Assembly (NCBI GenBank): GCA_963704755.1
Contig: OY969938.1
Location: 90,001-122,000 of the forward strand
Length of the DNA stretch: 32,000 nt
From: an uncultured Chloroflexia bacterium
GTDB lineage: Bacteria > Chloroflexota > Anaerolineae > Anaerolineales > Anaerolineaceae
Direction of reading: 5' to 3'
Shown here: positions 8,712 to 21,975 of the stretch, piece by piece
Position numbering within the stretch: the first letter of the stretch is position 1
Layout of the letters: the number at the start of each line of letters is the position of its first letter
The notes under the pieces: model-generated
The model's database searches: none
Seen by the model: the letters and a program-made list of their open reading frames with translations, nothing else
What the model was told of the DNA's origin: nothing
Position numbers and translations under genes: made by a program

Positions 8712-8727
8712 TGGCATAGATCTTGCA
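8712..8727 (+). promoter_or_regulatory. Sigma-54-type -24/-12 element upstream of rpoN
   Basis: TGGCAT-agatc-TTGCA. The GG (8713-8714) and GC (8725-8726) are separated by the canonical 12 nt. It lies 51 nt upstream of the rpoN ATG. Confidence 0.5.
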
Positions 8728-8751
8728 ACTATAGAAACTAACCGCTATACT
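8723..8751 (+). promoter_or_regulatory. Sigma-70-type promoter for rpoN; its -35 overlaps the -12 element of the sigma-54-like site
   Basis: TTGCAA (8723-8728), 17-nt spacer, TATACT (8746-8751). A GAGG Shine-Dalgarno lies 6 nt before the ATG at 8778. Confidence 0.55.
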
Positions 8752-8777
8752 CGTAAAGAGCCACCGAGAGGTAGATT

Positions 8778-19264: not shown

Positions 19265-21912
19265 AATCGTCCACTCCGGCCACACCAGAAGATCAGCAAG
19301 CCCGCGATATTACCCGCCCGACCTTATTGGTCGTTCTCGAAAAATCGATCGATGCCGGCGAATATCGCTATGCCCGCCAGCTCGCGTTGAACTGGCTGGC
19401 GGTTTATCCGGGCGACCTGGCGGTCAACACCTGGCTGGCCGAAGCGCTCATCCGGGACGGCAAGACTTCGCAAGGAATCCAAATCCTGGAGAAGGTGTCC
19501 CGCATCGATCCGGAATATACTCAGCCGTTGAAACTGCTCGCCCAGGCCTATGAGAAAATCAATGCGGCCGGGTCGCAGCAAGCCTTGATGCATGTGTTCA
19601 TGTTAGGCGAAAGAGTCGGTTCGAGCATTTCGATGCCGGGCTGGAGCATCGTGTTTCGGAATGCCCGCCGTGAATTGCTGAACGGCAACCTGGCAACGGC
19701 CGAAACATACGTTTACCAGGGTTTGGCTTTGAACCAGGACGATTCCCTGGGCGGAATTATCCATATGCAGGTGATCCGGGCCCTGGGTGAACGCGAAAAT
19801 CTGGCAAAGTTCGCCGAGCTTTACAACAATCGTTGGCCCGACTGCGTCGTGTTCAAGTTGGGTTTGGCTGAGGCCAGCCTGGCGTCCGGCGATGAGTCCG
19901 AGGCGGTCAACCTGCTTCACCAATGTGTTGCCGCGGATGCTTCCGGGCAGGTCTGCCAGCGTTGGTGGGGTGAAGACCATCCGTATAAACCGTTGTGGCC
20001 GGATCGGCTCGAAATTTCTCTGGATATATCTATCCCGGCCAGTGTGGCCGGTGAAATGGGATGGAATTTGCTGGCCGCCAGAAGCGATCAACCGGTCAAG
20101 GTTGGACCGCGTCCAATCGAACCAGCCCTGGAACCGGTCCAGGCGATCAAAGATCCCGAGCCGGTGGTTGCAATCCCTCGGCCGGCAGCAGAATTGCCGC
20201 CTGTACCGGGGAGTGTAAAACCAGCGCCAGCCGAACGGCCTGAATGGGTAAAAAAGACCGAGAAAGAATTTTCCCGGGTCGCCAAGCATGTCAAGGCGCC
20301 CGCCCTGGCGAAATCGGATGGGCGTTTCCCGATCTATGTCATCCTGACGACCAAAAATGGCCTGAACCAGAAATATGGCAGCCAGACTCTGGCGGTCATC
20401 GACGGGGAATTACAGTCTCTGGCGACTGCCGTGCGCAGTCACGGCGGTTGGGGTTCGATGGTGTTCTATCCGGACGATATCGAGACGACCGGAAAACTGG
20501 GACTGAAAACGATCGCGACCATCGACCCGTGGAAAATCAAGCTTTCCTTGAACGACCTGGATACTTCACTGGCCAAACAGGGTGAACGGATTGGCGCGGT
20601 ATTGATTGTGGGCGGGCCGGATGTGGTTCCGTTTCATCGTCTGCCCAATCCCACCGATGATTCGGATGAGGAAGTCCTTTCCGATAATCCTTATGCGACC
20701 CTGGACACCAATTATTTCATCCCGGAATGGCCGGTCGGCAGGCTGCCGGGTGAGCAGGGCGTGGACGTCGGTTTGCTCCTCCAGCAGATCCGCCAGACGA
20801 CCAAATATCACCAACAATCGGCCAAGGGCAAGAAAAGCCTGCCGGGCATTGCCTTCTGGCTGACGCTATTACAGCTCCTTTTCCATCGCAGCAAACCCAG
20901 CAGCAGCCCGACGAATGGGTTTGGGTACACAGCTTCAGTTTGGAAGCGGTCTTCTCTGGCGACTTTTCGCCCGATTGGGGATGGCGCAGGGATGTTGATT
21001 TCACCCCCCATCATTACCAAGGGATTCGACAGCCAGAAATTGACCGGTTCGCCAATGAGCTTTTTTAATTTGCACGGGATGGCCGAAACTGCGGAGTGGT
21101 ACGGCCAGCGCGACCCGACCGAAGATCCCAGCGGAACGGATTACCCGGTAGCCCTGGGGATCCCTGACCTGCCGAAAAATGGGCACGCGCCGAAATTTGT
21201 GTTCAGCGAAGCCTGTTATGGCGGGTACGTGGTAGATAAGACTGAAAAGACCTCGATTGCCCTGCGCTTCCTCTCGATCGGCTCAATGGCTGTGGTGGCT
21301 TCGAGCGGCATTGCTTATGGCGCCGCCAACACGCCGTTAGTCGGGGCTGACCTGCTAGGCAACCTCTTCTGGAGCGGTATCCAGGAAGGCTATTCGGTTG
21401 GGGATGCCTTTACGCAGGCCAAGATTGGCCTGGCTAACGAAATGAACAAGCGCCAGGGTTACCTGGATGGTGAAGATCAAAAGACACTCATCTCATTCAA
21501 CCTTTTCGGTGACCCGTTGATCTACAATGACGGGCTGCAAGTCAATCAGAAGCGGCTGCTGCGTTATGCCCAACTGCCGACGATGAAGATGGTCAACGAC
21601 CACCAGACGGCTGTAATTAATTCGCCGGCGGTCAGCGAACGAATTTTGAAATCGGCCAAACAAGCCGTGTCCTCCTATCTGCCGGGCCTGGAATCGGCTG
21701 AAGTGCGCATGAGCGCTCAGCAAATCGACATCGAAGGAAAAGCCGCTCACACCGGGATGTTCGGTAAACGGCTGGCAACCAAGCAGGTCGCTGACCGGAC
21801 GGTCGTGATTTTTACTCGAAAAGTGCGTGTAGGAGAACATACCCATACCAATTATGCCCGTGTGACCATGGATCGCGACGGCAAATTGATGAAGATGGCT
21901 TTCTCAAGGTAA
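19255..21912 (+). CDS. TPR-like N-domain, Pro-rich linker and gingipain/C25-like clan-CD cysteine peptidase domain (885 aa), cytoplasmic
   Basis: AGGAGG Shine-Dalgarno (19242-19247). The ATG overlaps the end of the TPR gene by 10 nt. C25-like blocks: GAVLIVGGPDVVPF, SDNPYATLD, WPVGRLPG, FNLHGMAETAEW (His607), FVFSEACYGGY (Cys654), FNLFGDP. No signal peptide. Confidence 0.8.
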   Translation: MPVESSTPATPEDQQARDITRPTLLVVLEKSIDAGEYRYARQLALNWLAVYPGDLAVNTWLAEALIRDGKTSQGIQILEKVSRIDPEYTQPLKLLAQAYEKINAAGSQQALMHVFMLGERVGSSISMPGWSIVFRNARRELLNGNLATAETYVYQGLALNQDDSLGGIIHMQVIRALGERENLAKFAELYNNRWPDCVVFKLGLAEASLASGDESEAVNLLHQCVAADASGQVCQRWWGEDHPYKPLWPDRLEISLDISIPASVAGEMGWNLLAARSDQPVKVGPRPIEPALEPVQAIKDPEPVVAIPRPAAELPPVPGSVKPAPAERPEWVKKTEKEFSRVAKHVKAPALAKSDGRFPIYVILTTKNGLNQKYGSQTLAVIDGELQSLATAVRSHGGWGSMVFYPDDIETTGKLGLKTIATIDPWKIKLSLNDLDTSLAKQGERIGAVLIVGGPDVVPFHRLPNPTDDSDEEVLSDNPYATLDTNYFIPEWPVGRLPGEQGVDVGLLLQQIRQTTKYHQQSAKGKKSLPGIAFWLTLLQLLFHRSKPSSSPTNGFGYTASVWKRSSLATFRPIGDGAGMLISPPIITKGFDSQKLTGSPMSFFNLHGMAETAEWYGQRDPTEDPSGTDYPVALGIPDLPKNGHAPKFVFSEACYGGYVVDKTEKTSIALRFLSIGSMAVVASSGIAYGAANTPLVGADLLGNLFWSGIQEGYSVGDAFTQAKIGLANEMNKRQGYLDGEDQKTLISFNLFGDPLIYNDGLQVNQKRLLRYAQLPTMKMVNDHQTAVINSPAVSERILKSAKQAVSSYLPGLESAEVRMSAQQIDIEGKAAHTGMFGKRLATKQVADRTVVIFTRKVRVGEHTHTNYARVTMDRDGKLMKMAFSR

Positions 21913-21947
21913 ACAATTCGAGATCCTCCCACCTGTCTTCTGTTGGC

Positions 21948-21975
21948 AAAGAGCCGCTGATTTTGGCGGCTCTTT
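21948..21975 (+). terminator. Hairpin downstream of the sigma-54 operon (weak U-tract)
   Basis: aaagagccgc-tgattttg-gcggctcttt, 36 nt after the stop of the 885-aa ORF. Confidence 0.5.

Follow-up and report, generated by a model that had tools for sequence, protein, structure and literature searches.

The locus examined here poses two questions: whether the genes for a sigma-54 factor, a histidine kinase and an activator, placed directly upstream of genes for a small membrane protein, a giant TPR protein and a protease, constitute a dedicated switch, and what such a switch would control. All six genes lie on the forward strand of the window, i.e. the whole 32,000-nucleotide stretch of DNA that was analyzed. 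Our main reading, to which we assign a probability of roughly 0.55, is that of a self-contained sigma-54 switch for a module composed of a TPR scaffold and a caspase-fold protease, with a role in division or cell fate in a filament. This figure is a blend; for the regulatory architecture taken by itself the comparative evidence is strong, and on sequence grounds we hold that part to be highly probable.

The features listed in a first-pass annotation of this DNA were all found where it had placed them, including the collinear rpoN, kinase and activator genes, which are separated by 56 and 4 nt. At least 520 species genomes across Anaerolineales share the six-gene block, and the promoter in front of the three effector genes (P2, described below) is conserved alongside it. 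The order rpoN-kinase-activator-small-TPR-C25 is kept in loci L001-L003 and a JGI contig; of 80 species genomes almost all keep it too, the only three exceptions having regulators that are not adjacent. Nearly all loci for which a full 10 kb upstream was available retain it, down to 38% protease identity. The neighborhood consists of housekeeping genes, trmFO and alaS or Pro_dh; the block persists where the downstream alaS was undetected in the DNA examined, although in a few short loci its absence may only reflect contig ends. The protease domain was recovered in 423 clusters (50% identity, E<1e-30), the source names of which are from Anaerolineales only. Effectors and regulators thus form a real, conserved unit in nearly all loci, and the sigma-54 switch is very probably inherited vertically throughout Anaerolineales. 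No description of a named system with this architecture was found in the literature, and the annotation had likewise known of no characterized one; in the filamentous Anaerolineales (Chloroflexota) it is most likely an undescribed system controlling division or cell fate.

The rpoN product (468 aa, 8778-10184) contains region I, a CPxC-N9-CPxC insertion, the core-binding and DNA-binding domains (Sigma54_CBD and Sigma54_DBD) and an RpoN box, ARRTVAKYR. The histidine kinase (648 aa, 10241-12187) matches PAS_8, PAS_9, HisKA and HATPase_c; domain and profile searches detected neither a transmembrane segment nor a GAF domain, so that of its earlier description as a PAS/GAF kinase the PAS half stands and the GAF half does not, and the protein is predicted to be cytoplasmic. 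The activator (393 aa, 12192-13373; Response_reg, Sigma54_activat, AAA_lid_14) carries a receiver domain with the receiver Asp, an AAA+ domain with GAFTGA, and a lid. A C-terminal HTH is absent: its alignments to the NtrC and AtoC profiles break off at positions 382/463 and 391/461, and its orthologues are of conserved length (388-398 aa). The activator is thus devoid of a DNA-binding domain, and as such would have to act without enhancer binding, from solution on any sigma-54 closed complex.

Activators of this kind are known in FlgR and CtcC (PMC3162934). Helicobacter pylori FlgS-FlgR-RpoN and Chlamydia CtcB-CtcC-RpoN similarly combine a cytoplasmic kinase with an HTH-less receiver-AAA+ activator (PMC3162934), and have a small sigma-54 regulon. 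Unlike in those systems, rpoN, kinase and activator here make up one operon beside the target operon, rpoN has a sigma-54 site of its own, and the targets are a TPR/protease module rather than flagellar or late developmental genes. Borrelia burgdorferi reportedly also keeps sigma-54 for very few promoters served by a single two-component pair (Hk2-Rrp2-RpoN-rpoS); the target of that pathway is said to be another sigma factor, and its rpoN to be unlinked to kinase, activator or target, in contrast to the present locus. We know of no insulating hairpin or dual promoter described for the Borrelia pathway.

Two sigma-54 promoters were identified. P2 (TGGCACAATTCTTGCA, 13426-13441, forward strand) precedes the effector operon, starts 52 nt downstream of the activator stop and matches TGGCAC-N5-TTGCA exactly, as had been claimed; its transcription start is predicted near 13452, assuming the canonical spacing from the -12 element. 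It is exact in 59 of 66 loci, with one mismatch in six of the other seven, and is kept in L059, whose regulators lie elsewhere. A sigma-70 -10 element is absent at P2 in the window, and none is conserved among the relatives. P1 (TGGCATAGATCTTGCA, 8712-8727, forward strand), an exact consensus match located 66 nt upstream of the rpoN ATG, had been overlooked by the annotation. In 80 of 80 metagenomic loci an equivalent site precedes rpoN, at a distance of 57-70 nt (47 nt in a single case). P1 overlaps a sigma-70-type promoter (8723-8751, same strand; TTGCAA -35, 17-nt spacer, TATACT -10), in such a way that TTGCAA serves as both the sigma-70 -35 and the sigma-54 -12 element. A -10 matching in at least five of six positions was found in 72 of 73 unique loci, as TATACT in 66, at a spacing of 16-17 nt.

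The strict motif TGGCAY-N5-TTGCW occurs three times in the window: at P1, at P2 and once within trmFO. Related DNA totaling 2.59 Mb contains 188 matches, nearly all of them orthologous P1 or P2 sites, which indicates that these sites are more than chance. The proposal that the effector operon is the only visible sigma-54 target must be given up: rpoN has a conserved site too, and in a sister lineage so do ORF44x and ftsZ. A similar overlap of -24/-12 with -35/-10 elements, at which the two holoenzymes compete, is found at E. coli glmY and Vibrio parahaemolyticus qrr2 (10.1101/2021.07.01.450815). In contrast to these, the dual promoter P1 drives rpoN itself, which implies an autoregulatory loop, and the arrangement has been kept throughout a whole bacterial order.

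The ATG of the small gene lies at 13478, with GGAGGA just upstream. Between P2 and this gene the window contains an inverted repeat (13446-13471, forward strand), in which an anti-SD CCTCTGCA (13446-13453) pairs with TGCGGAGG (13464-13471), the latter containing the small-gene SD. Relatives have a longer hairpin, stretching from -13 of P2 through to the start codon of the small gene, of which the window repeat is a degenerate local copy. The hairpin in relatives has a mean dG of -22.5 kcal/mol and a mean z of -5.0, as compared to -12.7 kcal/mol and -1.2 in the window, where the T-run is missing as well. The structure is supported by covariation: 81.4% of cells are paired versus 44-51% in slid controls, and double-change cells number 177 versus 62.8+-6.3 in shuffles, 0 of 500 of which reach 177. 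The 8 nt that follow the stem contain at least four T in 54 of 92 sequences (background 12.6%), and the hairpin of L063 was called as a terminator.

One possible explanation for this hairpin, and the one we prefer, is that it silences read-through transcripts, which it probably does. Such transcripts carry both arms and would be either terminated or left untranslatable, whereas sigma-54 transcripts would begin inside the 5' arm and be free of the hairpin. Alternatively, the repeat may act as DNA, as the operator of a dimeric repressor or as a cruciform affecting promoter melting, or else as a structure in the 5'-UTR of the sigma-54 mRNA, such as a thermometer or stabilizer. It does overlap the -12 to +1 region, the site of sigma-54 promoter melting, and the sigma-54 start position is a prediction. 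We nevertheless consider these alternatives distinctly unlikely. The arms vary among genomes yet stay complementary, the signature of a folded single strand and not of a protein-binding site; a canonical start (12 nt after the GC) would leave most of the 5' arm untranscribed, and relatives folded from there have a residual dG averaging -6.7 kcal/mol; the enrichment of T-rich tails suits a terminator. Silencing of read-through by the hairpin recalls the fold-back inhibition reported for IS10/Tn10, in which sequence upstream of the element's own start is said to pair with the ribosome-binding site, so that only properly started transcripts are translated. The computed geometry here is alike in that an upstream arm pairs with the ribosome-binding site. 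It differs in that the 5' arm coincides with positions -12 to +1 of a sigma-54 promoter, a terminator-like T-run often follows, and a chromosomal operon is shielded from its own regulator operon rather than a transposase from outside promoters. Given that the window hairpin is weak and lacks a T-run, the source organism may have poor insulation or none.

What, then, do the effector genes encode? The small gene (13478-13804), with its strong SD, encodes the expected 108-aa product, in which a 45-aa loop separates two hydrophobic segments. The loop (consensus iA.QTaklAQKGiaeevaGLVGNAs.Li.aLNqlvkT) is far better conserved than the segments themselves, and is basic at its start, hence predicted to be cytoplasmic; no family match was found in Pfam, NCBIfam, PHROGs or PADLOC. 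A psp-type response to envelope or membrane stress, in which the small protein and the scaffolds stabilize or remodel the membrane and the protease performs quality control, could account for a small 2-TM protein as the first gene of a sigma-54-driven operon, and sigma-54 regulons in general have been linked to the cell exterior (Francke et al., PMC3162934). We regard this scenario as very improbable, as PspA/IM30, PspB/C and a PspF-type activator are all missing, the activator possesses a receiver domain and falls short of the PspF cutoffs, the kinase lacks a membrane segment through which the envelope could be sensed, and conservation resides in the predicted cytoplasmic loop and not in the TM segments.

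The giant TPR protein (1803 aa, 13853-19264) consists of TPR arrays from about residue 420 to the end, preceded by some 420 fast-evolving residues with no family match. Its best NCBIfam match is PrsT (TIGR02917, 225 bits), and the kinase and activator match the PrsK and PrsR models, which would suit a PEP-CTERM/exosortase-type PrsK-PrsR-PrsT set controlling exopolysaccharide or sorted surface proteins. This analogy, drawn in the annotation, fails and is barely credible: the scores for PrsT, PrsK and PrsR (TIGR02917/02916/02915) fall under the curated cutoffs (225 vs 312, 87 vs 300 and 319 vs 503), neither the window nor about 170 related loci contain exosortase or PEP-CTERM genes, PrsT is a lipoprotein whereas the TPR protein has no signal peptide by inspection, and the activator has no DNA-binding domain.

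The protease ORF (885 aa, 19255-21912) starts, as claimed, within the end of the TPR ORF (10-nt overlap, 19255 vs 19264). The protein comprises TPRs (residues 20-270) and, beyond a disordered linker, the protease domain with His607/Cys654, followed by a beta domain at the C-terminus. At full length it had no Pfam C25 match at E<=0.01; the C-terminal 552 aa alone matched Peptidase_C25 at 5e-15 and 56 bits (cutoff 23). His607-Gly608 and Cys654 are invariant in alignments of both 14 and 103 sequences, Glu652/Ala653 in the former and nearly so in the latter. A Foldseek search with the AF2 model (pLDDT 86, pTM 0.87) returned the gingipains Kgp and RgpB first (4e-12 and 1e-11), followed by weaker matches to SAVED-CHAT, separase and Craspase TPR-CHAT. 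The Pfam and Foldseek results together bear out the annotated gingipain/C25-like His-Cys domain and indicate a cysteine peptidase of the C25 type (clan CD). Gingipains share its catalytic fold and His/Cys dyad, but gingipains and PorU are secreted T9SS cargo or components, whereas the present protease has no signal peptide and no T9SS C-terminal domain; that both large proteins are without signal peptides agrees with the annotation and was judged by eye only. The N-terminal TPR and C-terminal clan-CD architecture also resembles that of TPR-CHAT Csx29 (Craspase), which is however CHAT-type and CRISPR-associated, with a much weaker structural match (4e-4 vs 4e-12); no CRISPR or Cas genes were found at the locus.

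The best functional lead is linkage to ftsZ. In a sister lineage, whose protease is 35-39% identical, ftsZ and a few genes of unknown function stand between regulators and effectors, in the order rpoN-HK-EBP-(reverse gene)-ORF44x-ftsZ-ORF96-(ORF386)-ORF255-small-TPR-C25, for all seven of the seven FtsZ homologues examined. Sigma-54 sites precede ftsZ in 9 of 9 loci and ORF44x in 8 of 8; the site before ftsZ falls within the 3'-terminal part of a coding gene, and protein constraint could therefore explain some of its conservation. The three effector genes follow ftsZ on the same strand with no separate sigma-54 site. Location of the effectors in one operon with ftsZ suggests that they most likely serve division or cell-fate control. 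In the lineage of the window ftsZ is more than 10 kb from the block and the linkage is limited to the sister lineage; a cell-division function, as derived from gene linkage only, is a tentative proposal at somewhat less than even odds.

A parallel is offered by Anabaena HetF, a clan-CD protease of the divisome that controls division by cleaving PatU3, a specific inhibitor (PMC8406250, PMC9457339). In Anabaena, a multicellular filament, this caspase-fold cysteine protease acts at the membrane or division site (PMC8406250, PMC9457339); in the sister lineage here, ftsZ has a clan-CD protease gene downstream of it on its own strand. HetF differs in being a CHAT-family membrane protein without a giant TPR partner or sigma-54 control, the present protease being assigned to the C25 type by both Pfam and Foldseek; no homologue of PatU3 was found here.

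An additional scenario is a conflict or programmed-cell-death module, in which the caspase-fold protease and a membrane-disrupting small protein kill or arrest the cell, for abortive infection, or for altruistic death and the formation of necridia within a filament. Defense systems do employ clan-CD proteases that are fused or linked to TPRs, in line with the SAVED-CHAT and Craspase TPR-CHAT matches (6e-5 to 7e-4), and the small protein has a marginal match to Saf_2TM (E 0.009, below cutoff). Sigma-54 is silent without its activator, and such control, combined with a read-through-blocking hairpin, suggests that leakage would do harm; an all-or-none decision would be well served by positive feedback at P1, and a death or dormancy effector would fit the tight insulation and the clan-CD protease equally well. 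Defense islands are patchy and mobile. This locus, by contrast, sits among trmFO, alaS or Pro_dh in order-wide stable synteny, no PADLOC or PHROGs family matches any effector, and no defense-type nuclease, NTPase or sensor is nearby; co-location with ftsZ on one strand after one sigma-54 site in the sister lineage fits a physiological role better. The analogy, also drawn in the annotation, is weakened by these findings, and we consider it unlikely. A cytoplasmic, membrane-associated effector module that acts on the division or fate of cells in the filament remains the most likely reading.

In the mechanism that we propose for this division or cell-fate switch, basal rpoN, kinase and activator would be made from the sigma-70 promoter TTGCAA-17-TATACT, and unactivated sigma-54 holoenzyme on P1 would compete with the sigma-70 holoenzyme, holding the operon at a set level. 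A cytoplasmic signal would lead the PAS kinase to phosphorylate the activator, which, like FlgR and CtcC, would act from solution on sigma-54 closed complexes and fire both P1 (positive feedback) and P2 (effectors). The hairpin between the operons, with the -12 to +1 region of P2 paired with the small gene's SD and start codon, would block read-through in the manner of IS10 fold-back inhibition. The 2-TM protein may then present its conserved cytoplasmic loop, at which the TPR protein and the translationally coupled TPR-C25 protease would assemble, and the protease would cleave a specific cytoplasmic target in a process that the sister-lineage linkage suggests to be cell division.

Immediately upstream of P1 lies a perfect palindrome (8639-8709) with 34-nt arms, 100% complementary, and a 3-nt loop. 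Its sequence was not found in 163 related loci; being specific to the window, it is probably an inserted palindromic element outside the conserved system.

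The synteny search proposed in the first-pass annotation recovered the order rpoN, histidine kinase (HK), activator, small membrane protein, giant TPR protein and C25 protease in four contigs, down to 44% protease identity, and the same order was seen in almost all of the 80 species loci for which 10 kb of upstream sequence was at hand. A word-indexed search with the protease gave 1662 matches; 423 clusters (50% identity) matched it at E<1e-30, and a confirmed match was present in at least 520 species genomes, the homologues being named only as Bellilinea, Levilinea, Anaerolineaceae, Anaerolineales or 'Chloroflexi', which places the source among the Anaerolineae, filamentous Chloroflexota. 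The block, its upstream side included, was also kept in about 20 loci in which no downstream alaS was detected; a few of these loci are short, and contig ends may explain some of the cases. Its persistence without alaS indicates that it is conserved as a unit, beyond a mere by-product of general synteny. In L059 (Anaerolinea thermolimosa), L077 and L082, loci fetched for comparison with the window, the three effector genes stand together without adjacent regulators.

Every gene of the cassette proposed earlier was recovered in its place by an ORF listing and domain scans. The rpoN product (8778-10184) matched Sigma54_CBD (6.9e-33) and Sigma54_DBD (5.4e-30) and carries the RpoN box ARRTVAKYR. 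Its score against the TIGR02395 equivalog was 248.4 bits, below the curated cutoff of 277.35; it belongs to a divergent clade marked by a CPxC..CPxC insertion, the domain-level assignment as a sigma-54 not being in doubt. The insertion, a zinc-ribbon-like CPxC-N8-9-CPxC segment, occupies residues 52-68 (8931-8981), directly after region I, and was found in 80/80 unique RpoN homologues, the ftsZ-linked lineage described below included. We know of no described sigma-54 with a motif of this type.

The HK (10241-12187) is a soluble protein with PAS_8, PAS_9, HisKA and HATPase_c domains; of the 'PAS/GAF' architecture first attributed to it, the PAS part held, and no GAF domain was detected in the domain scans. 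It is separated from rpoN by 56 nt and from the activator gene by 4 nt, as annotated. The activator (12192-13373) has a receiver-AAA+ layout (Response_reg, 4.6e-25; Sigma54_activat, 3.2e-67), with the GAFTGA loop and Walker A visible in its sequence. Activators of the DBD-less kind act from solution, a mode of action workable for cells whose sigma-54 promoters are very few. The domain scan gave no match to HTH_8, the sequence ending right after the AAA+ lid; alignments to the NtrC, AtoC and ZraR profiles stop some 70-80 residues before the profile ends; and all orthologues are 388-398 aa long. For these reasons the activator is classed as DBD-less, a condition for which the sigma-54 activators FlgR and CtcC provide the precedent (PMC3162934). 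Elsewhere in the window (4900-6138 and 6358-7254, both on the minus strand), an orphan HisKA-HATPase kinase and an M28 peptidase lie side by side a short way upstream of trmFO, with no response regulator next to the kinase.

The sigma-54 promoter of the effector operon, which had been reported as TGGCAC-N5-TTGCA 52 nt after the activator stop, was found at that spacing at 13426-13441 (TGGCACAATTCTTGCA; P2). Of 66 loci, 59 have an exact TGGC-N7-TTGC upstream of the small gene, at a distance of 40-70 nt (about 130-145 nt in two loci, by an alignment-based estimate); six of the remaining seven have one-mismatch variants. L059 retains P2, its regulators lying elsewhere. A second exact site, TGGCATAGATCTTGCA (P1), is located at 8712-8727, 66 nt before rpoN. 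When 80 metagenomic loci retrieved with RpoN as query (55-76% identity) were compared, P1 was present in all 80 and, with one exception, lay 57-70 nt upstream of rpoN. When the 2.59 Mb of Anaerolineae DNA that had been fetched was scanned strictly for TGGCAY-N5-TTGCW on both strands, 188 matches were obtained, all but about ten of which were P2 or the site before rpoN, so that the motif is highly specific among these genomes. With GG and GC 10 nt apart, a consensus of YTGGCAC-N5-TTGCW and orthologous positions that are kept, P1 and P2 are predicted sigma-54 promoters. A third exact match in the window, at 7615-7630 on the minus strand (TGGCATCGCCTTTGCT), falls within the trmFO coding region and is probably due to chance, since no gene is suitably placed downstream of it.

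P1 has a further conserved element: a near-invariant TATACT (TATAAT in four loci) is found 16-17 nt past its TTGCA, and in 72 of 73 unique sequences the -10 agrees at five or more of its six positions. At this distance the -12 element of the sigma-54 site doubles as the -35 of a sigma-70-type promoter, which in the window comprises TTGCAA (8723-8728), a 17-nt spacer and TATACT (8746-8751). No conserved -10 was seen at P2 in the aligned loci. Overlapping sigma-54/sigma-70 promoters with holoenzyme competition have been documented for qrr2 and glmY (10.1101/2021.07.01.450815), and these serve as precedents for the dual promoter at P1. By this arrangement sigma-70 would supply a basal amount of sigma-54, kinase and activator; the unactivated sigma-54 holoenzyme, sitting on P1, would limit that basal level, and the phosphorylated activator would turn P1 into a positive-feedback promoter.

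Several other features were observed around P1. In five related loci (L108, L110, L115, L116 and L125) P1 is preceded, at exactly 17 nt, by a further sigma-54-like site, TGGTAYGAAACTTGCA, the two being tandem and overlapping. The loci L085-L163 share a conserved ATTTTACCA 20-35 nt upstream of P1 (equivalent to about 8665-8710 of the window), the reverse complement of which, TGGTAAAAT, looks like an extended -10 for the divergent trmFO. Just upstream of P1 the window also contains a perfect palindrome with 34-nt arms (8639-8709; CAAAGTATTGGGTGTTTTTATTGTTTTTGTGCGC / GCGCAC...). A role as an enhancer was considered for this palindrome and rejected: none of the related loci has it, and it therefore lies outside the system. 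In L148, a related locus, the leader of the ORF468 promoter has an insertion of another palindrome, TGGGGTGTGTGCGGCGGC-TGC-GCCGCCGCACACACCCCA, the termini of which are similar, and both may belong to a single family of small palindromic insertion elements. No homology was found between ORF468 of L148 and ORF391 of L077.

In the relatives of the window, P2 overlaps one long inverted repeat that begins at the G of the -12 GC and extends as far as the Shine-Dalgarno sequence (SD) and the small gene's start codon, as exemplified by CATCACTGCCTCTTGAG ... CTCAGGAGGCAGTGATG in L003. When 64 unique sequences were folded, dG averaged -22.5 kcal/mol and z averaged -5.0 versus shuffles, the 5' arm starting most commonly at -13; when folding began at the predicted sigma-54 start (12 nt past the GC), a mean of -6.7 kcal/mol was left. 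The MAFFT/RNAalifold consensus recovered just 9 of the pairs because loop lengths vary, and the full 18-pair structure was therefore tested explicitly. In an 87-sequence MAFFT alignment 81.4% of its positions were paired, versus 44-51% with the partners slid by 1-3 columns; double-change cells numbered 177 versus 62.8+-6.3 in shuffles, none of 500 shuffles reaching 177. At least four T were present in the 8 nt after the stem in 54 of 92 sequences, against a background of 12.6%, and a terminator scan called the hairpin in L063. A covarying stem that takes in the SD together with the start codon, with a T-run behind it, has, in the relatives, the predicted properties of a terminator or of an RBS-sequestering structure. 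These properties are weakly developed in the window, where all that is left of the repeat is an 8-bp stem between CCTCTGCA (13446-13453) and TGCGGAGG (13464-13471); the fold has a dG of -12.7 and a z of -1.2, and there is no T-run.

As no terminator-like site was found in the window between the activator gene and P2, and as the sigma-70 promoter of rpoN looks constitutive, read-through into the effector genes is to be expected. A read-through RNA, which contains both arms of the hairpin, would be terminated or would have its SD and AUG sequestered; an RNA initiated by sigma-54 would start inside the 5' arm and would be translatable. IS10 fold-back inhibition follows an equal logic and is a precedent for such insulation. 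The regulatory architecture as read here appears to us very probable.

The first of the effector genes (ATG at 13478, preceded by GGAGGA) encodes a 108-aa protein with two hydrophobic segments. Among 91 sequences these segments drift, and the loop of about 45 residues between them is the most conserved part (consensus iA.QTaklAQKGiaeevaGLVGNAs.Li.aLNqlvkT). Given the basic residues at its start and the positive-inside rule, the loop should face the cytoplasm; it would be the kind of conserved helical peptide typically bound by TPR domains. The giant TPR protein (13853-19264; 1803 aa) is TPR-rich from about residue 420 on, and profile scans revealed no other recognisable domain in it. Its N-terminal 420 or so residues evolve fast, and a search with the N-terminal 466 aa returned just four word-sharing homologues, from which nothing was learned.

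The protease gene (19255-21912; 885 aa) overlaps the TPR gene by 10 nt, and its product consists of a 250-aa TPR domain of its own, a disordered linker, the C25 domain and a C-terminal beta domain. The full-length protein had no Pfam C25 match at E<=0.01, and PDB sequence searches with it or with its profile returned TPR proteins only; its C-terminal 552 aa matched Peptidase_C25 at 5e-15 (56 bits versus a Pfam cutoff of 23). His607-Gly608 and Cys654 are invariant, and Glu652/Ala653 invariant or nearly so, in alignments of 14 and of 103 homologues. A first AF2 model (full length, 14 sequences) rendered the protease domain poorly (pLDDT 67.7), and in a Foldseek search with it TPR proteins dominated the list, a gingipain appearing only at rank 46. 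This was resolved by a domain-only AlphaFold model built with 103 sequences (pLDDT 86, pTM 0.87), the best Foldseek hits of which were the gingipains Kgp (4e-12) and RgpB (1e-11), with TM-scores of 0.5-0.58 on the target, followed by SAVED-CHAT, separase and Craspase TPR-CHAT at 6e-5 to 7e-4. The gingipain/C25-like His-Cys domain of the first-pass annotation was thus upheld by Pfam, the invariant dyad and Foldseek, and the protein is a predicted C25 (clan CD) peptidase with its catalytic dyad on a caspase-like fold.

The pairing of TPRs with a clan-CD protease is already known from CHAT proteins and Csx29. A CHAT or TPR-CHAT identity was nevertheless rejected for this protease, as it gave no CHAT Pfam match and its Foldseek similarity to that group is about 10^7-fold weaker than to gingipains; no cas genes were found near the locus. 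Neither of the two large proteins has a signal peptide by inspection, in agreement with what had been noted earlier, and no N-terminal hydrophobic signal for gingipain/PorU-type secretion was seen in the protease, the N-terminus of which is its TPR domain.

Of the three partial analogies offered earlier, the two drawn from named systems were not sustained. The scores for the PEP-CTERM PrsK/PrsR/PrsT analogy were 225/312, 87/300 and 319/503 bits (score/cutoff), all below the cutoffs, and no exosortase was found in the window or the related loci. For the Psp envelope-stress response there was no PspA family match; moreover, a PspF-type activator has no receiver, whereas the present activator has one and scored 249 bits versus the 444-bit PspF cutoff. 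Both readings were discarded on these curated cutoffs and on the missing partner genes. A defence or phage origin was likewise rejected, the effectors having no PADLOC or PHROGs match: the sole PADLOC hit was a TPR-repeat match to PDC-M71B, with none for the protease or the small protein.

The further statement that no characterised system has this architecture agrees with the outcome of literature searches, in which no description was found under Anaerolineae sigma-54/gingipain or Chloroflexi rpoN/enhancer-binding protein; Francke et al. merely noted sigma-54 in 'some Chloroflexi' (PMC3162934). What appears to be new is the regulator-effector combination conserved over a whole order, the dual promoter driving rpoN itself, the hairpin embedded in a sigma-54 promoter, the partnership of a cytoplasmic C25-type peptidase with a giant TPR protein and a small membrane protein, and the coupling of the system to ftsZ.

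The first pointer to ftsZ was provided by two outlier loci. With the FtsZ found in this way as query, seven homologues (68-83% identical) were looked up, and all seven lay in one 11-gene block, with the order (Pro_dh, reverse) rpoN-HK-activator-(478-aa gene, reverse)-ORF44x-ftsZ-ORF96-[ORF386]-ORF255-small 2-TM-TPR-C25. In these loci the TPR protein has 1837-1872 aa and the C25 protein 920-930 aa, and identity to the window is 45-59% for RpoN, 63-67% for the activator, 47-53% for the small protein, 25-29% for the TPR protein and 35-39% for the protease, identifying the block as the orthologous system of a sister lineage. P1 is present there together with its -10 (TATACT in five readable loci, TATAAT in L148). 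A sigma-54 site precedes ORF44x in 8/8 loci, and another, TGG[CT]A-N7-TTGCA, lies 52-125 nt before the ATG of ftsZ in 9/9 loci, within the 3' end of ORF44x. The small gene follows ORF255 by about 30-50 nt in this lineage, with no strict sigma-54 site ahead of it. As sites precede ftsZ and no strict one precedes the small gene, ftsZ and the three effector genes appear, from these sequences, to form one sigma-54-driven transcription unit.

The linkage to ftsZ points to cell division; it is linkage, short of proof, and the only evidence bearing directly on function. A parallel is found in HetF of the filamentous Anabaena, a clan-CD protease and divisome component that controls division through cleavage of the inhibitor PatU3 (PMC8406250, PMC9457339). 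A division-related function is on this evidence a tentative proposal, to which we give somewhat less than even odds. One possible and more specific explanation is that Anaerolineales sigma-54 acts as a dedicated bistable switch of division or cell fate. A single DBD-less activator would fire no more than three or four promoters, those of rpoN, ORF44x, ftsZ and the effector operon; FtsZ synthesis would be licensed together with a membrane-tethered giant TPR scaffold and a cytoplasmic gingipain-fold protease; and the protease would cleave a divisome regulator, upon which the cell of the filament would divide, separate or arrest. In Borrelia sigma-54 is kept for few promoters, which sets a precedent for such economy. 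For few promoters, FtsZ licensing and divisome-regulator cleavage taken jointly, we put the probability at little more than one in four.

Anaerolineae are abundant filamentous bacteria of digesters, sediments and activated sludge, and to our knowledge almost nothing has been established of their cell biology. If the proposed switch exists, a major, little-studied multicellular phylum would have a division-control machine not known before, and a first function would be assigned to cytoplasmic C25-family peptidases. Should the ftsZ link be functional, multicellular bacteria would offer a second, independent example, after cyanobacterial HetF, of division governed by a caspase-fold protease. The locus offers a tractable entry point: its promoters, two or three in number, are exactly defined, and it has a single kinase, a single activator and three effectors. 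The very small sigma-54 regulon that is predicted can be tested directly on any complete Anaerolineae genome.

Two minor observations concern the sister lineage. At the ORF44x sigma-54 promoter of L165 (8550-8610), TTGCATCCAT and the start region, ATGGATGCAA, form a perfect pairing, echoing the design of the P2 hairpin; this pairing is not clearly kept in L166-L168. The genes flanking ftsZ that matched no Pfam family are themselves conserved, and the reverse 478-aa gene, ORF44x, ORF96, ORF255 and, where present, ORF386, five in all, are candidates for further components or substrates of the system.
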